Shown here: positions 1-64,000 of the stretch, in pieces
How positions within the stretch are numbered: position 1 is the stretch's first letter
How the letters are laid out: each line of letters begins with the position of its first letter
Origin: Dictyostelium discoideum
Taxonomy: Eukaryota
Length of the DNA: 64,000 nt
Assembly: GCA_000004695.1 (NCBI GenBank)
Contig: CM000153.2
Span: forward strand, 672,001 to 736,000
Direction: 5' to 3'
Position numbers and translations under genes: made by a program
The notes under the pieces: generated by a model
The model's database searches: none
Seen by the model: only the letters and a program-made list of their open reading frames with translations
Told to the model about the DNA's origin: nothing

Positions 1-53
1 TTTATTTTATTTTAATTTATTTTATTTAAAACTGATTTCATTTTCAAAAAATA

Positions 54-93
<40 letters not shown>

Positions 94-170
94 AACTATA
101 AATAAGAGTTTTTTAATTTTTATTTCAAAACAGAATTCTATCTCTTTTTACTAATAAATTAACTTCTAAA

Positions 171-430
171 ATGTTATTCAGTATGTAAAAAAATTTATAT
201 AAAAAAATAATTAATAAAAATAATATAGAGAACTAATAATAAAAACTATAATTTTTTTTTTTTTAGAATCATTACAATCAATCACAAGTGTTAATTCAAT
301 CCAAAAGAATCAAATTTCTTCAATTTCAGTTGGAAGTTCTCAATCAAATAATAATGCCTCTCTCTTAGATGCTGCAGCACTTGTTGTAATTCCAGGTTTA
401 TTAACTGCTGCTGCTGTAGCTCATATTTAA
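171..430 (+). CDS. Small 57-aa protein, family copy 1 (MLFKSLQSITSVNSIQKNQISSISVGSSQSNNNASLLDAAALVVIPGLLTAAAVAHI). Two exons, 171-180 and 267-430; the intron is 181-266 (GTATGT...TTTTAG).
   Basis: ATG followed by a canonical GTATGT donor and a poly-T/AG acceptor. The frame is clean to TAA. Two further near-identical intact copies lie at 1055-1316 and 62816-63193. Upstream there is a poly-A tract followed by AACTATAAATAAGAG (TATA-like). Confidence 0.6.
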
Positions 431-655
431 ATTATTGAATTCACTAATAATTCATATATTAATTTAAAAAATTATATGAATATAAAATTGTACATTTAAT
501 AAATAAATAATTATATTTGTTTATTTTAAAAAATTAATATTTTCATTTTTATTTTCATGTTTTTTTTTTTTTTTTTTAATTTATAAAATTTTTTGTTATT
601 TGTTTAATTTTTTTTTTTTTTTTTTAAATTTATGATCAAAGTGTGTGTTTAGGCA

Positions 656-690
<35 letters not shown>

Positions 691-764
691 GTCACAAAAA
701 ATTTTTTTTTTTTTTTCCCCCTTTGGGAATTTTTTTTTTTTTTTTTTAAACCCTTTGATTATAA

Positions 765-806
<42 letters not shown>

Positions 807-1054
807 GGTTTTTGTTTTATATTAATTTAAAAGATTTATTTTAAAATGTTATCAAAATTAATCATTTATCTATTTAGATAATCTGATTAAATTTATAATA
901 AATAAAATAAATGTATAAATAAATAAATAAAATAATTAATAAACAAAATTAAATAAAAAAAAAAAAAAAAAAAAAAAAACTATAAAAAGAGAAAATATTT
1001 TTTTTAACAAAACAGAATTAAATTAGCTCTTCTACCAATAAATTAAATTAAAAA

Positions 1055-1316
1055 ATGTTATTCAGTATGTAATTAGTTATTAAAATATAAATATTTTAAA
1101 AGTAGTTTAAAAAATAAAGAACTAACAAAATTCCAAAATAATTATTTTATAGAATCATTACAATCAATCTCAAGTGTTAGCTCAGTCCAAAAGAATCAAA
1201 TTTCTTCAGTTTCAGTAGGAAGCACACAATCAAATAATAATGCAGCACTCTTAGATGCCGCAGCACTTGTTGTAATTCCAGGTTTATTAACTGCTGCTGC
1301 CGTTGCTCATATTTAA
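1055..1316 (+). CDS. Small 57-aa protein, family copy 2 (MLFKSLQSISSVSSVQKNQISSVSVGSTQSNNNAALLDAAALVVIPGLLTAAAVAHI). Exons 1055-1064 and 1153-1316.
   Basis: Same two-exon architecture as copy 1, with the same split codon (A|AA = Lys). Differences from copy 1 are conservative and the ORF is intact. The upstream poly-A plus AACTATAAAAAGAG element is conserved. Confidence 0.6.
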
Positions 1317-1445
1317 ATCTTTAAAAGATTAAATATAACACCATTTAATTACCTATATTTCATATAAACTATATTTAACACTTTCAATTTTATATGAATA
1401 TTAAATTGTATATTTAATAAATAATTTATTATATTTATTCACTCC

Positions 1446-1485
<40 letters not shown>

Positions 1486-1742
1486 TTTTTGTTGTTGTCA
1501 ACGGAACCATTTTTCATTTTTTTATTTTTATTTTTGTTTTTTTCATTTAATTTTTATTTTTAAATTTATTTTTTTTTTTTATTTTTTTTTTTGTAATTTG
1601 TTTTTTCCACTTTTTTTTTTTTTTTCTCTTTTTTTTTTAATTCACGATAACCATCTAATAAAATTATTATAATAATTTATTTTATATTTATTTAATTTTT
1701 TGTTATTTTATTTTATTTTATTTTATTTCCTTATTTTATAAT

Positions 1743-1773
<31 letters not shown>

Positions 1774-1781
1774 AACATCAA

Positions 1782-6359
<4,578 letters not shown>

Positions 6360-6401: not shown

Positions 6402-9162
6402 TTATTTTTGTTTTATTCTTAAAAATGATTTTAAATAACTTTTTTCTTTTCTAATTAAATGTAATTCTTCAAATAATAATGTATAAGATTCAACGAAATC
6501 ACGAATTGATAGCATACCTGAATTGAATTGAATCATTTCAGGATATAAAAAATGAAATACACTTTCATTTAGTAATAATATACGAGTACTTTGAAAGCAT
6601 TGATCAATTTGAGTTAAAGAATTTTTAATTAATAATGAGGTTTCAATAAATTTTTGATTTGCTGAAGATTTCTTATTATCACCACCACCACCACCACAAC
6701 AACTACCACCACTACTACCACCTGAGGAAATTAATTGTTTTAATAATAATTTTGAATGATTTAATTGTTGAAATAATAAATTTAAAGGAAATACTAATTG
6801 AAATGTTGTTAATTTTAAAATATCACTAAAAATTGGATTAAATGAATTTTCTAATGCTACTAAAGTTGTTAAACAGTCATCCATTTTCTCAACTATTGAA
6901 AAGTATCTATTAGCTTTAGATGGTGATACAAACCACATTTCTGATCTAATATCATATAGTGATGCTTTAATTTGATCAATACCAACTCTAATTGATCTAA
7001 TTGATTCAAGTGATTGTTTCTTTTTATTTTCTCTTTCAATTGATATTAAATTTTCATTTGACTTTGTTGTTATCAAATTATTAATACCATTTTGATCATT
7101 TGCAATTAATTTTAAAATTATTTTATTCTTTTCTTCGATTTTATCATTAGAAAAACTATTATGATTATTATTATTTTCATTTTCATTTTCATTTTCATTT
7201 TCATTTTGATTAAATATTGATAAATTATTTTTTAAATCTTTAATTGGTTCTTTTAATCTTAACCCATTTTCAATAATATTTATAAAAGTATCTGATAAAT
7301 TATTGGTAACTTTAAATATTTTAATTCTTGTTGCTTTATAAGTAAAAAATGGGAAAATAAATAAACTAATAAAAATAACCCATACTACACCCATTACTAT
7401 ATGGAATGCTCTAAGTACTGCATACATATATTCAAACTTTTTACTAAGATTTTGACCTAATACAATGATTAAAAAAGTTACACCTGAAACTGCACCAGCA
7501 TATGAATAACGTACATCTTGTTGTGGAAATGATATTATATAAGTGAATATGAAAATTATAATTAACATTACAATTTCTTTACCCGGTGTTGGAATAATAC
7601 TACAAAGTAGTGATGTTAAAAATCCAATAAATGCTCCAAAAATAGTTCCAATAATTCTATTTGTTCCTATTTAATTTTTTTAAAAAAAAAAAAATTAATA
7701 TTTGGAATAAATATTGGTAATAAAGGATTATCTATAGTTATTGATACTAACCACGAGTTATTGTTGCTCCTACTGATGGTACCATTACTAGCATTACGGT
7801 TGCACAAGTCCAAATACCATGAATTACTAAATCACCATGACTTCTGCCTTCAAAATAATAAAATGCAATAATTGATGACATTAAACCAAATGCAACTTTT
7901 AATGGATATCCCCATTTTTTATCTCTTATACAATTAAATTCAATCCATTTAATACATCTTTTAAAATAATTATTTTTTTTTTCTTTTTTAATATTTTGAT
8001 TATCAAATGGTTGTTGTTGTTGTTGTTCTTGTTGTTGTTTTTTTTCTTTTTCTTTATGATTTTTAATGAAATTTATTAATTTCTTGAATTTATTTATAAA
8101 GAAAATTGGTAGACCAGTTAATATAAATAGTAAACCATTTCTTATCAACTCCCATCTACATGATTCTTTATGTTGTTGTTTTTTAACTTTTATAAGTAAA
8201 TCAGCTAGTTGACGTTGTTGTAAAGTAAATGTCATAATATTATGAAAGAAATAACAAACTGAAGTAATTTCAGGAAAACTTAAAACTTGATGACCATAAC
8301 TTTCAAATTCTTCAACCGAATTTCTAAATGCACCTCTAACTCTTTTTACTAATTCTTCAGATTCATCAAATGATTCTTCTAAAATTGAACTAACAATATC
8401 AATTAAATTATTATTTTTTAAATTATTATTATCATTATTAATTATAAAATTTGGATTATTTGAAGATAATATATCAATCATTAAACCCATTTGTAAATAA
8501 ACTTCTTCAACTAAACATTCAATGAATGGAATTAATGGATAAATTAATTCTTGACTTGCTAGAGGTGTAAAACCATTCTTTATTGCTTGTTTAATTGAAA
8601 TTAATTGTTTTGATGATAATTCAAATAATAATACTAATTTATTATAATTTGAAATTAAATCACTATTCCATCTTTCTAATTTTGCTTCATTATATAGTGC
8701 TGTCATTCTTAAAATTTCATTTGTTAATCTACTTTCTAATCTTTGAAATTCTTTTTCATTAAATTGAGTTTTACTTTCTTCTATAGTTTTTTTATTTTCT
8801 TTTTTTGTTTTAATTTTTTCAATTTCTATAATATTATCTTTACTATTTCTTTTATTTTTATTTTTATTTTCATTATTTGTATTATTACTACTACTATTAT
8901 TATTATTAATACTACTATTATTATTTGTATCAATGTCTATAACTTCAACATTACCATTAAGAATCATTGAGTTAGAAAAGGTTGAATCATTAACAAATAA
9001 ACTTGAATTATTATCATTTAAAGTTATTGGATCTGTATTATTATTTGTGTTATTTGTAGCTACCATTGGTATGTCTATTGATAAAGGTGATACTGAATTT
9101 TTTTCAATTAAAATAGATCTTGTCAATGGTAATTTTAATTTTAATCCTTCAAAAATTTCTTC

Positions 9163-9209
<47 letters not shown>

Positions 9210-10191
9210 CATTATTTTTTTTATTAATATTATTATCATTATTATTATTACTATTGTTATTATCATTATTATTACTATTATTATTATTATTATTTTTATT
9301 ATTTTCATTAATATTATTATTATTTTCAATATTATTATTATCATTATTAATAGTTTGAATTAATAAAGAAGAAGATAAAGTTGGTGAATTTAAAATAATT
9401 GGTGGAAATTGATCAATTTGAGATTTTTTTAATTGTTGTTCTTTAATTAATTGATTTTCAACATTTTCAAAAGTATTTGGTGAAAATGCATCGTTTGAAT
9501 TTTTAAAATTATTATTATTATTCCTATTATTATTTTTATTACTATTATTATTTAATATATAACCACTATTAAGATCTAATTTATATTGTAATTGATGACC
9601 AATTGCTCTAAAATAAATTCTAGTTGTTTTTAAAGTTTTTAAAGTTTTTTTAAATAATAAACGTGATGCTAAAGTTGGAAAACAAATATGACCAATTATA
9701 ATTGAAGAGAAAACATAACATGCTCCAAGTATATTTTGCCAACAATTAATTCTGACAATTTCAACTGGTGTGAAATATAATATTACAATGATATCTAAAA
9801 ACATTTTTTTCATAAATAATCCACCAATCCATTTCCTTGATGGTAAACTAACACTGGTGGCAATTAAATATGAAAATAGAAATGTTGTTATAAAAGTTAT
9901 CCATACAATATCTCTTGTAATTAATATTATAAGATAACTATATAAACTTGCAATCAATGATCCATAGAAACTAGTGGCTCCTAAATGAATACTCGTAAAT
10001 GATGAAATATTACATGACGCCATTATACAAAATACTGGAACTAGACATAAAGTGCTTGAATTAAATATAAATCCATATGGTATAAATGAATAAATAGAGG
10101 ATAGCATTGTAATTGCTGCTTCTACTAATGCTATCCTACTCTTTAATCCAAATTTTTTATATGGTTTTGGTATTATATTTTTTAAAAACAT
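6402..10191 (-). CDS. FUSC/ArAE-type (aromatic-acid exporter / ALMT-like) integral membrane protein of about 1234 aa. It has two membrane domains separated by a long Asn-rich linker. Exons 10191..7752 and 7666..6402; the intron is 7751..7667.
   Basis: The two minus-strand ORFs (814 aa and 388 aa) join in frame through a GTTAGT donor and an ...AATAG acceptor. The junction reconstitutes the FUSC/ALMT signature ...PSVGATITRG|TNRIIGTIFGAFIGFLTSLL (GATxxxGxxRxxGTxxGxxxG). Hydrophobic helix clusters flank both ends. Confidence 0.7.
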
Positions 10192-10210
10192 TATTTATTA
10201 TTTATTTCAT

Positions 10211-10243
<33 letters not shown>

Positions 10244-10333
10244 TTTTGGTTTATTTATAAGGTATTGTTATTTTTATTTTTTAAAATATAGATATTAATT
10301 TTTTTTTTCTTTTATTTTATTTTTATTTTAAAT

Positions 10334-10364
<31 letters not shown>

Positions 10365-11014
10365 CCCTTATTAGTATGGATTTTAAGGTGGGGTGAGATT
10401 TTTTAATTTTGATTTCTTGCCCAATGAAAATAAAAAAAAAAAATTTTAAAATTAAAAAATTAAATTAAAATTAAAATTTTTCCAATTACCTTTAAATAAT
10501 ACAACCTGGGTAAACAAATAAAAAATTATTAAAATTATTAAAATTATTAAAAAAAATTAAAAATTAAAATTTTTTAAATTAAATTAAATTAAATTAAAAA
10601 AAAAAAAATTAAAAAAAAATTTATTTTAATTAATTTTTGCTGGTAAGAAATTTAAAATTGCAGATTTGCGACTTTTTTGGAGTCCATTCGCTATTTTTTT
10701 TTTTTTTTATTAAATTAATTAATTTTTTTTTTTTTTTTTTTTTTTTATTTTTTTTTTTTTAATCACTGGGTGGGAGCAAATTTTTTTTTTTATTTTTATT
10801 TTAAAATCAAAAAAAAAAATATCTCACTCCACACTCCGGTTTTACATATTTCCACAACCGATTGATAACTTTTGAAAAATAAGCGCACAATTGTTTTTTT
10901 TTTGTTTTTTTTTTTTTTTTAGTTTTACAAACAAATAAAAATGAGATTTGTACTGGGAAAATACACGTTGGAGAGAGCGAGCGAGAGAGAGGAAAACTTA
11001 CACTTATTAATATC

Positions 11015-12724
11015 TTAAAATTTACTGACAGATTTTTTATAAATTTTGGATAAAGCTAAATCCTCATCGTGGTCATAATATTCTTCACCATTGACACTTT
11101 CTAAATAAGATTCAAACACAGTGTCATATTCATAATTATCATAAACAAAACTGTGTTTTAATATTAATGTGATGGTTTCAATTGCACTTTCAAAATCTGT
11201 AATATCATTAAGAATGATTTCTTTTAATACTCTATCGAAATCTAATATAGCTTCGTCAACTTCATTAAAATTTTCCATAACACTCCATGCCAATTCAACT
11301 TGTTTTTCTCTTTTAACTTGCTCATTTACATTTTGATTTTTTCCTTCTTCTCCTTCCTCTTCTTCTACTTCTACTTCTTCTTCTTTTTCTTCCTCTTCAT
11401 TTTCACTATTATTGTTGTTGTTGTTGTTGTTTTGATTGATATTATTAAGTAATGAATTTTTATGAATATAAAATTGATTGAATAGTTCTTCAGTGGTGTA
11501 TTCTTGTTCAGTTTGGTCCAGGCTATCAGTAATACCATAATTTTCAAAATCTTGTTTAACCTTTAATTTAGTTTGGATCATTTCTTTTAATTTCATTATA
11601 TCATTCTTTCTTTTTTCTTTTTTAGAACAACAAAGTGATTCTTTATTATTTTGATTATTAATTTCATCTTCTTCATCCTCATCTTCTTCTTCTTCCTCTC
11701 CTTTTTCTTTTTCTTCTTGGTTTGGTAATTGGGGATCTTGAATAAAAGTTTCAAAAATTGAATGAGTTATAAAGATAGCTTCATTATTTAAAATTTCATT
11801 TGAATTTTTAATTTGACCACCATATAGATTATATAATCTAATTTTCTTTGAATCATATTCAATTTGGTCATTTCCAATTATAGTTTTATTTAATAGTGAA
11901 ACGATTTCTTCCTTAAATTGGTGGAATTGAGAATTTACAAATAATTTAAATAATGATTTCTTTGATCCATTCAAACAAATTGTAACTGATAATGAATTAA
12001 CTAATTTATTATTATCAATATTATTATTACTATCATTATTATTATAATTCTTTATGCCATAAATTTCTCTATAAAATGATTTAACAATTGGAAATAAAAT
12101 TTTTTCATTTGGATTTGAAATTGGTGATAATAATTTTTTAAAAATTTTTTGAGTTGAAAATAAATTTGATTTCTCTTCAAGTGAATTTGCTTTTGAATTT
12201 ACTAAATTGAATAAAGATAAAACTAAAGTTTGAAGAGATTTCAAGTGATCTTTATTTGAAAATTTACCATCAGTAATTGTTGTAATGAATGAATTATAAA
12301 TATGAGAAACCACTGAATCACCACAATGAAATGAACCATGAGTTAAGAATGTCTCTAAAAATTTAATTTCGAAATCATTAGTTTTCGTTGAGAAAATTTC
12401 TAAAAAACTAACAACACCATTTTTTAATGTACAATTAGTCACGGTGGTTTTGGAATGTTTTAAAAAATCTTCACCACAAACATAACAAAATTGAAAATAA
12501 CATCTTGAACAAGTCACATGATTACAACCACCATTCTTTTCAATTGGATATTTACATCTTTTACAAATTGTTGTATTATTTATAATCCATGAATAATTTA
12601 ATAGCTCATTATATAAATCTACACTTTTATTACATGCTGATGGCCAATGTAATCCAGGTTGTTTACAATATAAACAAAATATATGGTTATCATTACATTG
12701 AACATATGGTGAATAATAACAACA

Positions 12725-14925: not shown

Positions 14926-15596
14926 ACAATAAAAAAAAAAAATTATTGTATAATAAATACTCATAAATAATCAAATCTAAAAATGATAATTTTTACCATA
15001 AAAAAAAAAAAAAAACATACAAAATACAATAGTTTTAATAAAAAATAAAAACTTGTTGTAGAAAATAATAAATAATTGGAATATATTAAAGAATTAATTT
15101 AATATTAACACAAATGAAAATAGTAACTAAATTGAAATCAATTTATTATTTTTTTTATTTATAAATTGTTGAAAAAAAATATAAAAAATAAAAAACAATG
15201 TCACCCATGCAAACCCAAAACACCTTTTTTTATAAACCTAAATTATTATTATTCAAATTTTTTTTTTTTTAAAATGTGTAAATAAGTTTTACTTTTTTAA
15301 ATTTTTTTTTTTTTTTTTTTTAATTACACTTAAAAAAATATATTTTCTATACTTAATAAGAAAAATATTAAAAATATGGGAGTATGTTTATTAGAGAAGA
15401 TGAATAAGTGATACTCAAATAATAATGTTGGGAAATTACTAGATATATCAGTAATAAGAGGAACAATGAACAAGATTCATTATTTTGATGAAGTAAAAAT
15501 TATTTTATAGACAATCTGAAGTACTAGTTGTTACAATATAATATTAACAAAATATAATTTTAAAATTATATTATGATTCATTAGTTTTTACAAGAG

Positions 15597-15980
15597 ATGT
15601 TTGCAGAGGAAAAATTGGATGGTGTTATAATAAAGAGAAATCTTAGCAAAGAAGAGTTTGAAAATTTTGAGAACAAATATGAGGAATTTCAATTTGAATA
15701 TGAACCAAATGATGGCTTGTTTATTATTTTTCAAAATTTGACAACAGGTTGTGGACATTCAACATGTGTATCTGCTCTTGCCACTATTTTCTTTGTTGCT
15801 ATCAGTCATTATCAAGGAGGTGATGTAATAGATCAATATTTTAAAAGTTCAATTCGTCTTGAAGGTGATGTAATACAAATTTTTTTATTGCCATATAAAA
15901 AATCATGTGAGCATAAAAAAGAAGGTCTGCCAAATTTTAAAAAATTTAAAACAAATTTAATTCAAAAAAAAATAAATTAA
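15597..15980 (+). CDS. Hypothetical 127-aa protein (MFAEEKLDGVIIKRNLSKEEFENF...). The gene structure is uncertain and it could be a partial or relic gene.
   Basis: A non-low-complexity ORF with ordinary codon composition. No recognisable domain. No convincing upstream exon was found. Confidence 0.3.
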   Translation: MFAEEKLDGVIIKRNLSKEEFENFENKYEEFQFEYEPNDGLFIIFQNLTTGCGHSTCVSALATIFFVAISHYQGGDVIDQYFKSSIRLEGDVIQIFLLPYKKSCEHKKEGLPNFKKFKTNLIQKKIN

Positions 15981-16704
15981 AATAAAAAAAAAAAATTAAA
16001 AAAAATTAAAAAAAAATAAATTTAAATAAAAAAAAAAAAAATTGCTCCACAAGAAAAAAATACAAAAACAAATGAATATATATTTATTTATTCATTATTA
16101 TTATTATTATTTATTATTTTGAGATTGTTTTCTTTTTAATTTTCCTAATTAGGATTTTTTTATTTTTTTATTATTTTTTTATTTTTTTTTTGATTTGGGA
16201 GATAATAATAAATTGAAAAATTGGTCTATCTTTGCCGATTAATTAAAGTAGATTTAAGAAATGCAAAAAAGAAAAATAAAATAAAATAAAACAAAACAAA
16301 ATAAAATAAATTAAAAGAGATAGACAATATTGAAAATAAATAAAAAAAAAAAAAGATAATTCTAAAGTGGACCAAAATCGTTTATTTTATTTTTATTTTT
16401 ATTTTAAATTTGATTAGGCAGTAAATAAAATTTATCTCACTCAACATTTAGTTTTTGAATAGTGAAATCACAAGTGACAAAACCATTTCTATGGTTGTAT
16501 TTGAATACGATTGAGGTGTATCTAACCAATCTCTAATAAAAATAAAATAAAATAAAATGAATGAAAATGAAAAAAAAAAAAAAAAATGGAAATTTTCAAG
16601 AGCCCACATGGGTGTTAATTTTTTTTTTTTTTTTTTTATTGATTAATGCACCCTCTTGAAAAATTAATGTTAAAACAAAAATAGTAATTAAGAAATAAAA
16701 AGAA

Positions 16705-18094
16705 ATGGAAAAGGAATTATTTTTTAAAGTTTTTAATAATATTTTTTTAAAATCAAAAATTAAATATTATTTAAAAAAAGAATTTAGAAATGGAGTTTAT
16801 GAATGGGAAGAATTGAAATCAACAGAATGGTTAATAGAGAATGGTTATTTAAATGTATTAAAAGAGAAAATTAAAAGAAAAGAAGAATTATCATTCTATT
16901 GTAATGGTAAAAAAAAAGCAAGACTTTTAACAAATCTAAAATATGATAATAATCCAAGTGGTGATACAATTAAAACAAATAGCATTCCAAAAGCAATAAT
17001 CTATTATAAGAATTCAATATTTAACATTTTTCAAGAAAATACTCTTGAGAATTTTAATTTCTTTTCAACATTATTTAATAATTATAAGTCAAGTTTTGGT
17101 TATATGTTAACAGAATCGTTGAAAGATATAATTAGAATTTCAATTGAATATGATAATGTTTCATCAATTAGAGTAATACTTGAACAATATAATTTCAACA
17201 TTGACTCAAATATTGATACATTAATAGTACACTCGATTGATATTGGTTCATTTCAAATTTCAAATTATTTATTATCAATTAAAAAATTAAATAATAATAA
17301 TAATAATAATAATGAATTTAATTTATCAGATTATCATATTCAAAGGGTTTGGGAAAGAGCTATAAGCTTTAAAAATATTGAAGATGAAATTGAATTGGTA
17401 ATTAAAAAAATTGAATATTTAGCAATTGAATTAAATATTAAACCACCAATAATATTAAATGGTGTAGAATTAATATTTTTAAAATTAAATATTGAGATTT
17501 ATAGACAACCATTATCAATTGTAATTGGATTATGTAAAATTTGTATATTATTAAAAGACCATTTAAAACCATACTTGGACCCATCATCATTAATAAAAAC
17601 TAAACATTTTAATAATGTTTATTTCTTTCCAACAGATTTAAAATTAAACTTTATATCAGATTTAGATCATTTCTCAACAATTTTAAAAATTGAAGAATTA
17701 AATAAAATCATTGAAAATTTTAATAAAGAGAAATTAAAAATTCCAATTTTTAAATTTAATAAATCAAATGAAAGTATAAGAATATTAATTAATATATTAA
17801 TTAAATTATCACCAACAAGTAAATTAAATTCAAATTATGTATTTTATAAAGTTAAATTTCAAAATCAATTATTAAATCAAAAATATCTATTACTATGTGA
17901 TATGAATGATTATCATGAAGAAACTGGTCAATTAATAATTAATGATCAAATTGAATGGGATATTAGTAATTTCAATTGGTCAAATAGTCATTTACCTTAT
18001 AAATCATTTTATTCAAGTCAAAGTTTTCCAAAAGATGATAAAAAATTGGTTTTTAAATATTTTAAAGATTTAAAACCACCATATATAATTGGTG

Positions 18095-18171
<77 letters not shown>

Positions 18172-19281
18172 CCAATTTATTTTCAAAAAGATTTAACAGA
18201 ATTTTTATTATTTTCAATTAAAAATGATAATTTTGAATCACTTCAATTATTATGTGAAAGATTTAAACCAAATTTTCAAGAATTTTCAAGACCTTCACCA
18301 TACTTTTTTATGAAATCAATTGAATCATTTGATTTAGTTTATAGTTTAGATATTTTAAAAAGTAGAGCATTAATGGAAATTAAATATAATTATAAATTAG
18401 CAAGCCATTTTAAAGAAAATTATAGAGATGATTATTATAATCAATTAGAGAATCATTTACCTGAAAATTCAATTCATTCACCTTATGAATTTAATCTATC
18501 AAAATTTCAATTCATTTTTGAAAATTGGTTAGATTTTAAAAAGTATCATAGTAATTTCCTTGAATTAATTTCAGATACAATTAAACATGGTTCACCATTA
18601 TCATTAAATGATTATATTGGATTTATTAAAATGTTTCCAATTGGATATAATAATAATAATCCACCAATTTCTAATAGAAATAATATCGATCAACAACAAT
18701 GTGAACAAATTTATTATTGTTTAAAAAATAGAGCAGATTTTCAATTTTACATTGTTTTAATTTTACCTTCAATATTATTAGTAGAGTATTTATCAACCGA
18801 TTCAGAAAAATTCATTTATAGACATTTCATTCATACAACTTTATTATTAAAAACAAATTATAATTTAATTTTAAATGAAATTTCAAATAGAGGTGATACT
18901 AATTTTATTTCAACTTTTTTAACAATACTAAATAATAATAATAATAATAATAATAATAGTTTTCAAATAGAATTAAAAAAGGATATGTTTATTAATGATT
19001 TATTATTTAACTCTATAAAGCATGGTAGTTTCATGAAATTTATAACATTTTTATCAAGTTTAAATTATTCTTTAAATTTAAAAGATCCTAATGAATTTAT
19101 TATTGAAGGAATAAACTCAAATCAAATTAATGTTGTAATTTACTTTTTAAAATCAAAAGGATCAATAGATTTTTCTTCTTTATTAGCTAAATTCAATAAC
19201 AATAACAATTATAATAACTATTGTTTTTCACTTAATTATTTATTAAGTAATATTAATAATTTATTAGAAATAAAAAATTAA
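16705..19281 (+). CDS. Intronless Asn-rich hypothetical protein (858 aa). Its N-terminus is paralogous to the 1782-6359 protein.
   Basis: A long ORF. Its N-terminal motif MEKELFFKVFNNIFLKSKIKYYLKKEF matches EILFWNVFHNKFLRCLIIHHI of the first large ORF. Poly-N tracts are present. Confidence 0.7.
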
Positions 19282-19391
19282 ATTAATTAATTACTAAATT
19301 ATCCCTACATTGGTAATAAATTTTTTTTATTTTTTTTATATGTGTGTTGTCAGTAGTTATAAAACAAATATAAATTGTTTATAAATGTTTT

Positions 19392-20231
19392 TTAACCTTG
19401 GTGTTGTTTTACTAATTTGGCGAGTTTTTTCTTTAAATCTTTATCATTGGATACACAAATTAATTCTTGAATATCAGCAATAAAGTCATGTAATTTATTA
19501 CCTTTTGGAGCCAAATCTACATAGATTGTATTATTTTTACCCATTAAACCATATAATAGACCCATTTCGAAAATCAAATTAAATCTTGGGTAATAATGTT
19601 CTTCATATTCAGGGTCGTGGGATTCTAGATCATAAGTGACAAATACAAGGCAAAAATCACATCCATCAATTATTTTTTCAAAGTTTTTAATGTCGGTTTT
19701 ACCATTCTTACTTTCCAATAATACTATTGAAATGTTCATATCTTCGAGCATTTTAGAATACTTTTCTTGAATTTCATTATTACCGTTAACTACTAAAGCT
19801 TTTAGTTTTTTAGGTGTCTGTTGAGTGGTGTTTGCACCATCTGCATCTTTTTTATCTACTTTTTTTGTTTCTAAATCTGTAGCTTTTGAGAAAGAATTTT
19901 CAATATTATTATAATTCTTTTGGTGATTCTTTTGAATTATTTATTTTTTTTAAAAAAAAAAAAAAAATTAATAAATGATTTATTTATCTATATTAGTTTA
20001 TATTAAACATACCAATTCCATTAAAAGATTCTTAATTTTTACACGTTCTTCTTCTTGACAACCTTGAATTTGGATATTATTAGTTGAGTGGTAGAAAGTA
20101 ATAGTTAATTTTTTTGCACCTTCTTTTATTTTAAAATAATCTTTTGTTGGTTCATCTTCGAAAATTGTATACTTTGTGCCCAATTCTTTATTAATGCATT
20201 GAACTGCTTCCAATCTTGTTATAGCAATCAT
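19392..20231 (-). CDS. Two-exon gene encoding a 251-aa protein. It has a small N-terminal domain of about 73 aa and a C-terminal TIR-like domain of the bacterial COG4271/PF10137 type (Cap12/PycTIR/STING-associated). Exons 20231..20013 and 19928..19392; the intron is 20012..19929.
   Basis: Exon 1 (MIAITRLEAVQ...KNLLMEL) ends at a GTATGT donor. Exon 2 starts after ...AAAAG in phase 0 and runs 179 codons to the stop. Exon 2 carries the characteristic motifs KALVVNGNN, TDIKNFEKI, DFCLVFVTYD and YPRFNLIFEMGLLYGLMGKNNTIYV, which correspond to vFIvHGhd / TiIEKfE / fAvvLlTPDD / RARQNVifElGyFiGkLGRerV of the COG4271 TIR-like family. Confidence 0.6.
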
Positions 20232-20577
20232 TATTATTATAATAGAAATTATATATAATTATTTTTAAACTAAAAATTGATTTCATTTTAAAATACTATT
20301 AAAATGAATTTAAGTTATGGGTTTTGAATTAATAATATTAAATCTTAATATAATAATTTATTGGACTTAAAAAAATAGGTTTTTTGTTCCAAAAAAAATA
20401 AAAAAAATTTAAAAAAAAAAAAATTAAAAAATTTTTTGGATCTCAGATTTAAAAAAAAAAAAAAAAAAAAAGAAATTAGATTGAAAATTGGTTTGAATTT
20501 AATTGAAAACTCAAAATAATTTTTTAATGGTTCTTTTTTCAAATTTAATACTGTAAGTTGAATTTTGTGGGAGAATA

Positions 20578-43639: not shown

Positions 43640-44583
43640 TTAATTTTTTTCAAATTCAACAACATTTATTTGACTAATTCCTTTTTTCATTTGATACATT
43701 TTTTCATCGGCAGATTTAATAATTGAAGAAACTTTAGTTTCAGATTTTTTAAAGACAACACCACCATATGAAAAGAAAATTGGAAGAATGGTTGAACTTG
43801 ATTCACCGTCGACAGTGAAGCTACTTGAAGAGACGTTTTTAGTGAATTGTGAAATGAAATGATCAGCATGATCAACATTTTCAACACCTCTTTTAATGAT
43901 TAAAAATTCATCACCACTTAATCGAATTGGAAGAACATTGGAATCCTTTTGTGCTTTGAATTGATTGGAAACATGTTTTAAGACCAAGTCACCGACTTCA
44001 TGACCATAGGTATCATTGATTGATTTGAATTTATTTAAATCCATGAAATAGAGTGCACAAAGATCAGTTTCAGATTTGTTACAAAACTTTTGAATCTTTT
44101 CATCGAGACGATAACGATTTGGTAAACCAGTTAATGGGTCATGAGCCAAAATGTATTTCAATTTCTTTAATTCAGATACTTCTTCACTAATATCCAAAAC
44201 CAATCCTCTAAATACTGATTTATTACATTTTCCAGAGAAACGATATTTCTTGGTACCATCAATTGATTTCAATACGATTCCTTTGGAATTTTGAATATCT
44301 TGTTCATCATTATTACTATTATTATTTAATGCTAATACAAAATCATTTGGATCAATATTTAATGATTCACAAAATGATTGGATACTAAAATATTTATCAG
44401 ATGTTGTTTGTGTTTGTTCAATATTATTATTATTATTATTTGAATTATTATTATTATTATTATTAAATTCTTCGGTAGAATTATTATTATTATTATTTAC
44501 AATTTTAACACTTTTATTTAAAATATTATTATTATTTAAAATATTAATATTATTACTACTACTATTATTATTATTATTACTAC

Positions 44584-44614
<31 letters not shown>

Positions 44615-45001
44615 TATATTATTATTATTATTATTTTCATTATTATTTGTATTTGTATTTGTATTTGTATTTGTATTTGTATTTAAATATTGAGTTAAAT
44701 TATTTGATGAATTTGATTTTGTCAAAACTGGATTGATGGTATTTACAACTTTTTGAGCAAAATTAATTTCTAATACAATAAGAGTTGGTGTATAATTTAA
44801 AATTTGTTTGAAAGTGTTTGTTTCGGATAACATTTTTCTTTCTCTTTGAATAAAAGTATATATTAAAACAACTACAATTAAAAGGAATAACATATTATCT
44901 TTTGTAATATACAAATTACTATTATTATTCATTTGATTATATTGCATATAATTATTATTATAATTATAATTATTATTATTATTATTATTATTTATATAGT
45001 A

Positions 45002-45057
<56 letters not shown>

Positions 45058-45205
45058 CATGATTATATGTAGTGGAATCAATTGTATCATTAACTTTATT
45101 ATTCGAAATTTGTGATTTATATAAAGTTGAAGTTGGATTACCACTATTAATATATGAATAAATATTTAATGTTGATAAAAATAATTCTTGAATTGATTTT
45201 TCCAT
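43640..45205 (-). CDS. dgcA: GGDEF-domain diguanylate cyclase (521 aa), probably Dictyostelium dgcA. It has an N-terminal Asn-rich region and one TM segment.
   Basis: GGDEF-domain motifs are DPLTGLPNRYRLDEKI, ALYFMDLNKFKSINDTYGHEVGDLVLKHV, the active-site loop IRLSGDEFLII (an SGDEF variant of GG[DE]EF), and SADEKMYQMK. D. discoideum is known to make c-di-GMP through a single GGDEF protein, DgcA. Confidence 0.7.
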
Positions 45206-61690: not shown

Positions 61691-62815
61691 CAATTAAAAA
61701 TATAATTTCAACTTTTGTTCGTTCGGTTTTATTATATTTTTTTTTTTATGGGACATTTGCAAAAAATAGTTATTTTTTTTTTAAAAATTTTTAGTTTAAA
61801 ATTAAAATTTATTTTCCAAAAATTTCATTTTATTAATCAGAATTTAAATCTCATTTTCCAACAACACAATAATTTTTTCAAAGTGTGGAAAAAACATAAT
61901 TCCAACACACCCAGATTTTTTTTAAAAAAATAATAAAAAAAAAAAAAAATTAAAAAAAAAATAATAATAAAAAAGATAAACATTAACTTTTTTGTAATTT
62001 CATTTTGTGAAGAGATGAATCATGACCCTACAACTGATAAACAGTATCATCATGCAATGTTACAAATATTTCAAATGAAAAAAAAATAAAACAAAATTCA
62101 CTTTTTTTTTTTTCAATAATTTTCATTTTTTTTTTTTTTTCGTTTTTTTGATATTTCAAGATATTTTCAAAATATGATTTTGATTTTTTTTTTTGATTTT
62201 TTTTTTTTTTTTTTTTTAAATAATAAAATAAATAACCATTATTATTTATTTATTTTAATTTTTAATTAATTTTAGATTCGTTGCTTTTAATAGGTCTGAT
62301 ATAAAATCATAATAAATCTTATGATCTTTTTTTAAATTTTTTTCATTTTTTATTTCATTTTTTTTTTTATCTCAAAAAAATATCTCATAATAAAATTAAT
62401 TCAAATTCTAAAAATAATATATTTGTTTCCGTACTTTTAATTTTTTTTTTTTTTTTAAAAAAAAAGTTTTAGTTTGTTTCAAAAAAGTTAAGTTATTTTT
62501 TAGAAAGTTTATACTTGAAAAAATATATCTTATCTATAATTTTATTAGATTCCCTTTTATTAATTTATTTATTTATTTATTTTTTTTATTTTTTTTTTTT
62601 GCCCCCATCATGATTGTTTAATTTGACAATAATTTTTTTTTAATAATGAACCTATTAAATGTGAGTGGGTTTTTATTTTAAACTGATTTTGTAAAACATT
62701 AAAATAAAATTAAAAAAACTAAAAAAAAAAAAAAAAAAAAAACTATAAAAAGAAATTTTTTTTTTTTTTAAAACCAGAATTCTCTCTCTTCTTACTAATT
62801 AATTAAATTTCAAAA

Positions 62816-62836
62816 ATGTTATTCAGTAAGTAATTT

Positions 62837-62935
<99 letters not shown>

Positions 62936-62976
62936 TAATATTTAAAATAGTAAAGGGTATTAATAAAAGTATAATA

Positions 62977-63016
<40 letters not shown>

Positions 63017-63193
63017 AAAATTATTTTAGAATCATTACAATCAATCACAAGTGTAAACTCAATTCAAAAGAATCAAATTTCTTCAATTTCATTAGGAAGC
63101 TCACAATCAAATAATAATGCAGCACTCTTAGATGCAGCAGCATTTGTTGCAATTCCAGGTTTATTAACTGCTGCTGCTGTTGCTCATATTTAA
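62816..63193 (+). CDS. Small 57-aa protein, family copy 3 (MLFKSLQSITSVNSIQKNQISSISLGSSQSNNNAALLDAAAFVAIPGLLTAAAVAHI). Exons 62816-62825 and about 63030-63193. The intron carries a long (AAT)n tract.
   Basis: Same exon-1 sequence ATGTTATTCA followed by a GTAAGT donor. Exon 2 is intact to TAA. The same upstream poly-A plus AACTATAAAAAGAAA motif is present. The exon-2 start is uncertain by ±1 nt because of the poly-A run in the printed line. Confidence 0.55.
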
Positions 63194-63552: not shown

Positions 63553-63710
63553 TGATGTTGATGTTGATGTTGATGTTGATGTTGATGTTGATGTTGATGT
63601 TGATGTTGATGTTGGTGTTGATGATGTTGATGTTAATGTTGTTGTTGATGTTGATGTTGATGTTGATGTTGATGTTGATGTTGATGTTGGTGTTGATGTT
63701 GATGGTTCAT
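63553..63710. repeat. (TTGATG)n hexanucleotide microsatellite.
   Basis: Visible in the sequence. Confidence 0.9.
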
Positions 63711-64000
63711 TTGCTCATACTAGGCCACTGCCCACCAGTTGGTGACAGACTGCCGTTTGCCAATAATAGGTAAGTGTCAGCTTAATGTTCGCAGACTGGG
63801 GTTTGCCCATGCTATACAAATGACCGCTAACTGGTGGCAGATGGTCATTTACTCATACTAGGCCATTGCCCGCTAGCAGCCAGAAGACGGCCAGTGGTCT
63901 AGTGTGAGTAAACTGAGGTCTGCCAGCAATTAACGACCACTTATATAGTATAAGCAAACGGAAGTCTGCTACCAGCTATAGGGCACTGACCTATTATTGG
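63711..64000. mobile_element. GC-rich complex sequence that looks like a terminal fragment of a transposable element (LTR/ITR-like). It continues off the window.
   Basis: There is an abrupt composition change to about 50% GC. A duplicated internal motif, TTACTCATACTAGGCCA(C/T)TGCCC, occurs at about 63715 and about 63850, and a second repeat GTTTGCC..TGCC is present. There is no ORF. It directly abuts a microsatellite. Confidence 0.4.

Follow-up and report, generated by a model that had tools for sequence, protein, structure and literature searches.

A tandem array of prestalk 57-residue mini-genes and its dispersed paralogue on Dictyostelium discoideum chromosome 4, a probable divergent branch of the hssA/sigN superfamily

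How are intact copies of a gene of only 57 codons arranged on D. discoideum chromosome 4, and for what product are they kept? The question is raised by a stretch of 64,000 nucleotides (hereafter the window), in which three such genes are located on the + strand, at 171-430, 1055-1316 and 62816-63193. Exact string and translation checks uphold the initial annotation in describing them as intact, spliced, two-exon genes. In each of them, ATGTTATTCA is followed directly by GTATGT or GTAAGT (starting at 171, 1055 and 62816), the intron ends with TAG, and exon 2 comprises 164 nt, giving a spliced coding sequence of 174 nt, or 57 aa and a stop codon. In copy 1, coding exon 1 (171..180) takes in only the first base of Lys codon 4 and is followed by an 86 nt intron (GTATGT...TAG, 181..266) and by coding exon 2 (267..430, including the TAA stop). 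The same succession of exon 1, intron and exon 2 is found in copy 2 at 1055..1064, 1065..1152 (88 nt, GTATGT...TAG) and 1153..1316, and in copy 3 at 62816..62825, 62826..63029 (204 nt, GTAAGT...TAG) and 63030..63193. A (TAA)34 microsatellite and an A36 run account for the greater length of the copy 3 intron. Differences among the three peptides are limited to T/S, N/S, I/V, S/T, S/A, V/L, L/F and V/A. A tblastn search over the whole window disclosed no further copies, and neither degenerate copies nor other micro-exon mini-genes were found in it beyond these three.

The protein of copy 1 is identical to XP_639062.1 (DDB_G0283517) and that of copy 3 to XP_639092.1 (DDB_G0283465). Copy 2 is probably DDB_G0283519, as assigned by position and identifier order only. 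Its protein has no exact match in the protein collection, and the same is true of the 68-aa product that would result from an in-frame alternative AAG acceptor 55 nt into its intron. Exon 2 lacks its own ATG, and in all copies examined (15/15) none can reach its ORF unless the intron is removed; splicing is thus obligatory. The predicted exon junction joins ...TTATTCA to AATCATTACAA. Only 2 nt of a qRT-PCR primer published in PMC3640940 extend over the exon junction, and the primer was not counted as proof of splicing. Missing intron-spanning transcripts, or an ORF belonging to a larger gene, had been named at the outset as grounds for giving up the gene model; published transcripts of these genes are abundant, and all relatives are stand-alone genes encoding 57-65 aa. 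A tRNA scan of the window and an Rfam scan of copy 3 with its surroundings and downstream region gave no matches.

The apparent triplication is an artefact of the window edge. The window start falls inside a tandem array of chromosome 4 which continues upstream, copies 1 and 2 being its last two units. On a contig from another strain, positions 15001-20261 correspond to window positions 1-5277 with 99.5% identity. This contig carries 12 ATGTTATTCAGTA starts spaced ~870 bp apart, and 12/12 give intact 57-aa products. Units with proteins identical to DDB_G0283503, 505, 507, 509, 511 and 517 come in that order, and colinearity with unit 12 identifies copy 2 as the final unit of the array. Several unit proteins of the contig have no exact match in the protein collection. 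In the AX4 reference, ten genes are annotated at the array, DDB_G0283501-519, where array membership of DDB_G0283501, 513, 515 and 519 is based on identifier order, published size class and expression profile. The locus is a head-to-tail array of 10-12 units with a period of ~870 bp, accompanied by a dispersed paralogue, copy 3.

Alignment of 13 units reveals which segments have been retained. The match in exon 2 is 0.92 vs 0.48 in shuffled controls, and in the region -110..-1 it is 0.81 vs 0.56, far more than expected by chance. Introns and outer flanks differ little or not at all from the shuffled controls, and within introns only the splice sites can be aligned from one unit to another. Averaged dS and dN are 0.224 and 0.041, respectively (dN/dS ~0.18), with 12, 5 and 27 variable sites at codon positions 1, 2 and 3, respectively, and all ORFs (13/13) are intact despite decayed introns and flanks. 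The peptide is under purifying selection. Selection has also acted on the core promoter and leader, and other sequence between units has decayed. Since only the peptide, core promoter and leader are kept, the array looks like a set of old duplications retained for the dosage of one product.

The proposal that the promoter was duplicated together with the gene is borne out by this conservation of positions -110..-1. Upstream of every copy, a poly(A) run and a TATA box are followed by a T-run and a conserved leader. The TATA box, AACTATAAA(T/A)A..., is located at 91-108, ~978-992 and ~62741-62755 in copies 1, 2 and 3, respectively. In copy 1, the core promoter and 5' leader (56..170, + strand) comprise poly(A), tataaata at 97-104, the T-run and a leader ending with ...AACTTCTAAA before the ATG. 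The same elements make up the corresponding segments of copy 2 (955..1054, +, TATA box 981-988) and copy 3 (62717..62815, +, TATA box 62744-62751). In the 13-unit alignment, the A-run, (C)TATAAA, the T-run and AAACAGAATT..CTACTAATAAATTAAATTATAAA are conserved. The upstream motif string given in the initial annotation is right only in rough outline; its letters do not hold for copies 2 and 3, which read AACTATAAAAAGAGA and AACTATAAAAAGAAA. A bacterial-type promoter and terminator scan, a method unsuited to a eukaryote, returned fewer promoter-like sites than shuffled sequences.

In addition, G-rich boxes are located further upstream. One of them, GGGGGTTTTT (804..813, +), lies ~250 nt before the copy 2 ATG and is a candidate GBF-type G-box; another, GTGGGTTTTT (62665..62674, +), lies ~150 nt before the copy 3 ATG. 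The motif GKGGGTTTTT occurs four times in the window (0.43 expected), and GGGTTTTT is present upstream of 9/13 units (0.35 expected). GBF-like G/C-rich boxes have been reported in sigN promoters (PMC2257962), and a GBF-type function may be suggested for the boxes described here. Every unit is self-contained as a transcription unit, consisting of a G-rich box, poly(A), TATA, T-run, leader, 10-nt micro-exon, ~85-nt intron and exon 2.

Published data provide the expression pattern. These genes are silent in growth, come on later than 12 h and have their maximum at 16 h, in the slug/finger stage; expression is almost only in prestalk cells. As an illustration, the values for DDB_G0283517 at 0-24 h are 0, 0, 0, 7.5, 1014, 585 and 289, with 4179 in prestalk vs 8 in prespore cells (supplement of PMC6198379). 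Summed over DDB_G0283501-519, prestalk expression is ~123,000 vs ~1,500 in prespore cells, an ~80-fold difference (supplement of PMC6198379). These genes are listed as "small proteins (57-59 aa), prestalk specific" in Table 3 of PMC3640940. According to the same study, removal of the MADS-box factor Mef2A raises expression of the genes 10-100-fold, and reads in mef2A- vs wild-type cells are 356 vs 3 for DDB_G0283465 and 950 vs 17 for DDB_G0283519. The genes thus already have dictyBase and NCBI identifiers, and their size class, specificity for prestalk cells, timing of expression and dependence on Mef2A have been published. Taken together, the 57-aa genes are among the most abundant prestalk transcripts, and many copies are kept under purifying selection.

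The N-terminus had been likened to the HssA/2C/7E and sigN small proteins, and three lines of evidence speak for this affinity: a sub-threshold Pfam similarity, a profile-profile alignment and a homologous intron position. The Pfam family PF05710 'Coiled' matches the three window proteins with 13.5, 16.0 and 15.5 bits (E 0.02-0.13), in residues 2-35 only and below its gathering threshold of 21.4 bits; among the close relatives, only DDB_G0283493 gives a match (14.1 bits). Aligning the 57-aa family with the UPF0512/hssA family by hhalign gave a probability of 70.9%, E 3.8e-5 and a score of 28.1 over 40 columns. This score was reached by 0/200 fully column-shuffled and 0/200 N-terminal-half-shuffled controls (maximum 16.7), and the similarity is confined to the N-terminal 40 residues. 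The genes described here have the structure ATGTTATTCA/GT..AG/AATCA, in which the intron splits codon 4 behind its first base; in a verified hssA/2C/7E gene, ATGACAATTTTTA/GT..AG/ATTCA, it is codon 5 that is split at this point. In the hhalign alignment, residue 2 of the 57-aa family is paired with residue 3 of the hssA type, and the introns fall in the same column and in the same phase. According to the literature, a micro first exon with 13 nt of ORF and a phase-1 intron characterize 89/96 sigN-like genes, and a 10-nt exon 1 is present in three of them.

Further features are shared with the hssA/sigN class. Both consist of tiny stand-alone genes, commonly in tandem clusters, in which a phase-1 intron separates a coding micro-exon from the rest of the gene and splits the codon next to a conserved (I/L)F. 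The proteins start with M-x-(I/L)-F-x-S-(I/L)-x-S-I and continue into a Ser/Asn-rich stretch, G-rich GBF-like boxes are found upstream, and published expression is post-aggregative and mainly prestalk. Differences are nevertheless clear. Exon 1 has 10 instead of 13 coding nt, leaving one residue fewer before the intron, and the proteins have 57 aa instead of ~75-100 aa. Ala, Val and Leu are frequent in their C-terminal half, the whole protein has 0 Cys and only 2 Gly, and the C-terminus is LLDAAALVVIPGLLTAAAVAHI; the Gly/Ser/Cys-rich C-terminal half of the class, termed 'cysteine-knot-like' in SigN, is absent. The chromosome 4 array is not in the set of 96 sigN-like genes of Vicente et al. 2008, and PMC3640940 states "no significant similarity to hssA". 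Judged from sequence comparison, we regard the 57-aa family as a branch of the hssA/2C/7E/sigN superfamily by ancestry, and a divergent one. What is added here is this connection, made by the homologous intron position together with a composition-controlled profile match, and the finding of a structurally identical homologue in Acytostelium subglobosum. In the latter, exon 1 likewise comprises 10 nt and breaks off within the same Lys codon, and the protein is 40-44% identical; the family therefore extends beyond D. discoideum and the species nearest to it.

The nearest paralogues are DDB_G0281189/191/195 (59 aa, chromosome 3), DDB_G0281615 (58 aa) and DDB_G0283493 (62 aa). They share with the 57-aa family the MLFKS(L/F) start, a length near 57 aa and 39-60% identity. 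The mid-protein NNN is kept in all of them except DDB_G0283493, and in DDB_G0281189/191/195 it is part of SQSNNNAALL. The genes DDB_G0281189/191/195 are likewise prestalk-specific and de-repressed in mef2A- (PMC3640940). Tails of the nearest paralogues contain His, Asp, Glu, Lys and Arg and do not resemble transmembrane segments.

A strongly hydrophobic C-terminus, as initially annotated, is confirmed by a Kyte-Doolittle mean of 2.14 over residues 36-54. Means of 19-mers range from 1.96 to 2.40, where the usual cut-off is 1.6, and the segment ends three residues before the C-terminus. For the best 19-mer, the Wimley-White octanol scale gives about -0.6 to -0.1 kcal/mol, and the Hessa biological scale +1.7 to +3.2 kcal/mol, so that the scales disagree. 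The segment includes Asp38 and Pro46-Gly47. The predicted propensity of the tail for membrane insertion is at best marginal. All tail substitutions in the 13 copies are hydrophobic-for-hydrophobic or Thr/Ala, and four to five charged or His residues occupy the tail region in the distant relatives (DDB_G0281189, DDB_G0281615, DDB_G0283493 and the Acytostelium gene). An N-terminal signal peptide is not recognisable by a crude test, the maximal 8-residue Kyte-Doolittle mean in the first 20 residues being 0.8-1.1. An N-terminal amphipathic helix or coiled coil was considered and rejected, as the hydrophobic moment is not above that of shuffled sequences (1327/5000 reach it). AlphaFold2, run with an 11-sequence alignment, gives two nominal helices with pLDDT 60 and pTM 0.23, which is uninformative, and a profile search of PDB yielded no usable matches. 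DDB_G0283505 is labelled "transmembrane protein" in the supplement table of PMC6198379.

As a whole, these data are accounted for best, with a little more in favour than against, by a chromosome 4 prestalk family of 57-aa proteins, organized as an array with a dispersed paralogue, forming a divergent hssA/sigN branch and encoding a putative membrane micro-protein. The biochemical part of this explanation is tentative when taken separately: the product might be an abundant prestalk micro-protein held on or in a membrane in a tail-anchor-like way, or self-associating there. Tail-anchored proteins likewise have no N-terminal signal and possess a lone hydrophobic stretch, here ending three residues from the C-terminus, but hydrophobicity of the present tail is marginal and Asp and Pro-Gly lie inside the segment. 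The comparison is one of analogy and not of homology. In such a scheme, the invariant tail LLDAAALVVIPGLL..AVAHI would be inserted or held post-translationally in the membrane, or would self-associate there, and the Ser/Asn-rich N-terminal half would be exposed. The question of biochemical role is common to the whole hssA/sigN class of ~100 genes, in which a 13-gene deletion and six single knockouts gave no phenotype.

A less probable explanation, which still deserves attention, is that the product is an extracellular structural component, exported by an unconventional or N-motif route into the slime sheath or stalk tube, with the array providing bulk. Matrix is made by prestalk cells, and very high prestalk transcript levels from dosage-amplified genes would suit such a product. 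Sheath proteins that are urea-insoluble, Ser-rich, Lys/Arg-poor and smaller than 15 kDa have been described, and vesicle staining was observed for SigN relatives (PMC2257962); in the 57-aa peptide, Ser makes up 25% of the residues and Lys occurs only twice. Against this, the Kyte-Doolittle profile reveals no N-terminal signal peptide, the peptides have no Cys, even SigN itself gave no matrix or surface staining (PMC2257962), and transcripts of DDB_G0283517 are nearly gone in the mature stalk, with a value of 7.6 (supplement of PMC6198379). Five UniProt accessions of the family were not found in the accessible part of a 2026 life-cycle proteome supplement; with about one usable tryptic peptide per protein, this is uninformative.

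Rather unlikely is a role as a proteostasis factor similar to SRCP1 (DDB_G0293362), in which the Ser-rich N-terminus and a beta-prone "pseudo-amyloid" tail would bind to, or co-aggregate with, Q/N-rich proteins in prestalk cells. SRCP1 is also a small Ser-rich Dictyostelium protein, its hydrophobic C-terminal segment is functionally essential, and it is among the hssA-related genes in PMC3640940. Furthermore, Val, Ile and Ala are frequent in the tail examined here, which has Pro-Gly at its centre, and tails of the relatives alternate polar and hydrophobic residues. SRCP1, however, has 88 aa and is regulated in mef2A- in the opposite direction to the 57-aa genes. Expression limited to one cell type and stage is difficult to reconcile with the ubiquity of Q/N-rich proteins, and AlphaFold2 gives helix, not strand, although with low confidence.

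Comparably speculative is a reading by analogy, in which the superfamily of ~100 hssA/sigN genes would be built like toxin or bacteriocin precursors. The micro-exon "leader" with the above N-terminal motif would route varied C-terminal "cargo", and the 57-aa array would supply an abundant hydrophobic, self-assembling, amyloid-like (SRCP1-like) peptide to the prestalk surface, sheath or stalk tube through a common non-classical export or vesicle route. Acytostelium makes its stalk tube without stalk cells. If the precursor-like reading were true, the Acytostelium homologue would fit a role in tube making over one in stalk-cell fate.

It is very improbable that the transcript rather than the peptide is the active product, as reported for hssA. 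Conservation of the leader and core promoter would agree with an active transcript; the low dN/dS, the excess of variation at third codon positions, ORFs that are intact in all units while introns and flanks decayed, and conservation of the Acytostelium homologue at the protein level argue for the peptide.

Finally, practically nothing favours the 62-kb interval as a mobile or segmentally duplicated block with the gene copies marking its ends, and this was rejected on array context and interval gene content: copies 1 and 2 do lie in direct orientation to copy 3 at a distance of ~62 kb, but the left "flank" is merely the end of the 12-unit array, copy 3 is similar to array units only within the gene unit itself, additional relatives exist elsewhere on chromosomes 3 and 4, and the interval genes are unrelated and of housekeeping type. 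The impression that three copies flank a block arose from the position of the cut, and the interval carries ordinary unrelated genes, including ALMT-like, RBR E3 ligase, nucleoside transporter, SET and GGDEF genes.

A string search for ATGTTATTCA followed by GTATGT or GTAAGT returned exactly three occurrences in the window, all on the plus strand, at 171, 1055 and 62816, and the strings and coordinates proposed in the initial annotation are thus correct. Copy 1 (171-430, +) has an intron of 86 nt, copy 2 (1055-1316, +) of 88 nt, and copy 3 (62816-63193, +) of 204 nt. All three introns end with TAG and are followed by an exon 2 of 164 nt, terminating at 430, 1316 and 63193, respectively, and the spliced CDS of 174 nt encodes a 57-aa protein in each copy. 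The intron of copy 3 owes its excess length to a (TAA)34 microsatellite together with an A36 run (62838-63014). A tblastn search using the family and related proteins as queries found no further family copy in the window, and a scan for other micro-exon mini-genes was likewise empty.

The protein of copy 1 is identical to DDB_G0283517 and that of copy 3 to DDB_G0283465, both located on chromosome 4 of D. discoideum AX4, where DDB_G0283503, 505, 507, 509 and 511 are annotated as further paralogues. Another D. discoideum assembly (GCA_054883475.1) was fetched at the locus of one annotated paralogue (L001). Window positions 1-5277 represent the same DNA as L001 15001-20261 (99.5% identity), and ten additional units, each carrying one 57-aa gene, are located upstream of the part that matches the window start. 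In total, L001 comprises 12 head-to-tail units spaced by ~ 870 bp, with the 57-aa ORF intact in 12 of 12. In L001, units whose proteins match those of 503, 505, 507, 509, 511 and 517 exactly are found in this order, which makes DDB_G0283519 the most probable identity of copy 2, the final unit. Ten genes with consecutive odd numbers, DDB_G0283501 to 519, share a single expression profile in a published table (PMC6198379 supplement). The locus is a tandem array of 10-12 units accompanied by a dispersed paralogue. Because array units extend upstream of the window start, both the triplication and the flanking of a 62-kb block by three copies, as initially described, are artefacts of the window cut; the left copies are the end of the array, and the arrangement that had been called unexplained vanishes once the upstream sequence is seen.

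The 12 intact units (L001 6543-16305) compare with ten identifiers in the AX4 gene list, indicating either that copy number varies between strains or that AX4 contains unannotated units. The annotation of GCA_054883475.1 itself recognizes just 3 of these 12, and one of the three is given as a fused model of 123 aa. The copy 3 intron is more than twice as long as in the other 12 units, its splice sites being undisturbed by the (TAA)34 and A36 tracts. In copy 2 (intron 1065-1152; unit 12 of L001), splicing to another in-frame acceptor (AAG, 55 nt inside the intron) would yield a 68-aa product (MLFKLTKFQNNYFIESLQ...), and an analogous case in unit 9 of L001 would yield one of 63 aa; neither is present in the protein collection.

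Over the 13 distinct loci, dS averages 0.224 and dN 0.041 (ratio 0.18), with 12, 5 and 27 variable sites at codon positions 1, 2 and 3, respectively. Broken down by segment, the match is 0.92 in exon 2 (0.48 in shuffled controls), 0.81 in the 110 nt that precede the ATG (0.56), and 0.74 in introns (0.65); the introns, the 3' flanks and all sequence beyond them stay at the chance level or close to it. This distribution of conservation shows that the duplications are old and that maintenance is confined to the coding sequence and to the core promoter and leader. The exon 2 ORF is without Met in all copies, an in-frame stop being found 8-26 codons upstream with no ATG between, so the conserved peptide can be obtained only from the spliced message.

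The core promoter has the same layout in every unit, composed of an A-run, (C)TATAAA, a T-run and a conserved leader of ~ 50 nt, with the first three forming the classical Dictyostelium core promoter. Further upstream, a G-rich box, G[G/T]GGGTTTTT, persists amid otherwise decayed sequence. GGGTTTTT precedes 9 of the 13 units (0.35 expected), and GKGGGTTTTT occurs four times in the window (0.43 expected), including sites 804 and 62665 upstream of copies 2 and 3. CA-rich runs are also present upstream in several units. By analogy with sigN promoters, in which similar G/C-rich, GBF-like boxes were described (PMC2257962), the 57-aa genes may be GBF-dependent.

The feature is a gene family already annotated and already described. 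Family size and developmental co-regulation, suggested for checking at the outset, are answered by published tables (PMC3640940, PMC6198379). Table 3 of the Mef2A paper (PMC3640940) defines a category "Small proteins (57-59 aa) (prestalk specific)", which includes G0283465, 501, 503, 505, 507, 511, 515 and 519, and every one of these genes is strongly raised in 16-h structures of the mef2A- mutant. Read counts are 356 in mef2A- and 3 in wild type for G0283465, and 950 and 17 for G0283519 (16 h); G0283503 was confirmed by qRT-PCR (PMC3640940). The PMC6198379 supplement reuses the time course of Parikh et al. together with prestalk/prespore data. There, G0283517 gives 0, 0, 0, 7.5, 1014, 585 and 289 over 0-24 h, 4179 in prestalk vs 8.0 in prespore cells, 7.6 in stalk, and ~ 0 in vegetative cells, spores and the mature cup. 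Values for G0283519 resemble these (811 in prestalk, 5.7 in prespore), and genes 501-519 sum to ~ 123,000 in prestalk vs ~ 1,500 in prespore. Since the paralogues are near-identical, some reads may be mis-assigned between units. These are genuine genes under selection at the protein level, and they form a dosage-amplified, prestalk-specific, protein-coding array.

Affiliation with the hssA/2C/7E/sigN families, initially suggested from the Ser/Asn-rich N-terminus, proved a good guess. The 35 N-terminal residues match Pfam PF05710 below threshold (13.5-16 bits vs 21.4), and since the formal threshold is missed, we class the family as a relative of PF05710 without counting it a member. In an hhalign comparison between a profile built from the 57-aa family plus its relatives and an alignment of genuine hssA/2C/7E proteins (UPF0512 W, K, P, Q, C and related sequences), the probability was 70.9%, E 3.8e-5 and the score 28.1 over 40 N-terminal columns. 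Column-shuffled controls (n = 400), including shuffles restricted to the Ser/Asn-rich half, did not exceed 16.7, so the match is not merely compositional. Residue 2 of the 57-aa family is paired with residue 3 of the hssA family. A verified hssA-family gene has ATGACAATTTTTA (13 nt) as its exon 1 coding sequence, with the intron after base 1 of codon 5. In the 57-aa family, exon 1 has 10 nt and the intron follows base 1 of codon 4, so that both codon and phase agree in the alignment. According to Vicente et al. (PMC2257962), 89 of 96 sigN-like genes have the 13-nt exon structure and three have an exon 1 of 10 nt; their list does not contain the chromosome 4 array. Based on the N-terminal profile match and the shared intron codon and phase, we conclude that the 57-aa family is a divergent branch of the hssA/2C/7E/sigN superfamily, having in common with it the N-terminal module and gene architecture, but differing in a distinct C-terminal half without Cys and without a Gly-rich tract.

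Exhaustive profile search through 1.84 billion representative proteins matched only six clusters: the 57-aa family, the 59-aa chromosome 3 genes DDB_G0281189, 191 and 195, an old fused gene model, DDB_G0281615 (58 aa), DDB_G0283493 (62 aa, chromosome 4), and a 65-aa protein of Acytostelium subglobosum. The Acytostelium gene (10001-10264 of its locus L003), single-copy at this locus, has a 10-nt exon 1 (ATGTTGTACA), a GTAAGT intron and the same split Lys codon, and its protein contains an IIPGLLT motif. Because of this shared structure, the family and its gene organization extend beyond D. discoideum and its closest relatives. A. subglobosum builds an acellular stalk without stalk cells, and a homologue of the D. 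discoideum "prestalk-specific" family, with identical micro-exon structure, is present there.

In the C-terminal tail, Leu36, Leu37, Asp38, Ala39-41, Pro46, Gly47, Leu48, Leu49 and Val54-Ala55-His56-Ile57 are invariant, and substitutions elsewhere in the tail are restricted to exchanges between hydrophobic residues or between Thr and Ala. Kyte-Doolittle hydropathy over 19 tail residues (1.96-2.40) is above the usual transmembrane cut-off, and no N-terminal signal-like segment was detected by hydropathy in the 57-aa proteins. These two points would fit a tail-anchor-like micro-protein, one of the options suggested initially, but the evidence on membrane insertion is mixed. Against it count the Hessa scale (+1.7 to +3.2 kcal/mol), the marginal Wimley-White octanol values (about -0.6 to -0.1 kcal/mol), Asp and Pro-Gly inside the candidate membrane segment, and the charged tails of more distant relatives. 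AlphaFold2 prediction was uninformative for the 57-aa protein, and a literature search found no functional studies of this subfamily. Our tentative preference is for a membrane-associated or self-associating prestalk micro-protein; gene identity and this mechanism, taken jointly, are considered slightly better than an even call. Next in our ranking is a secreted matrix component, which we consider unlikely, followed by a still less probable SRCP1-like pseudo-amyloid factor, suggested by SRCP1 being of the same class and acting via such a tail. Function as RNA only, as reported for hssA, is highly improbable, the dN/dS ratio counting against it.

Genes between the array and copy 3 are unrelated, coding for an ALMT-like transporter, RBR-type E3 ligase, nucleoside transporter, SET-domain protein and GGDEF protein. 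The gene list of L002 additionally places an Arf-type GTPase a few kb upstream of copy 3. Two neighbouring ORFs of 388 and 814 aa (6402-10191, -) each cover a different portion of the profile for ALMT (aluminium-activated malate transporter) and are probably two exons of one gene. The 521-aa ORF at 43640-45205 (-), in the interval that separates the prestalk array from copy 3, has a strong GGDEF diguanylate-cyclase domain (E 2.6e-30), and we take it to be most probably dgcA, the Dictyostelium enzyme making the stalk-inducing signal c-di-GMP. Directly after (TGATGT)26 (63553-63704), a long inverted repeat begins (63701-64000) and runs past the window end, the full element occupying 10879-11237 of the region surrounding copy 3 (L002). 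Its GC content is 48% against a background of 18.6%, its 172 nt arms are 76% complementary around a 15 nt spacer, and the predicted RNA hairpin has -212 kcal/mol over 359 nt. Rfam gave no match, and neither the window nor L001 contains a second copy. We regard the repeat as a candidate MITE-like element or hairpin-RNA locus.
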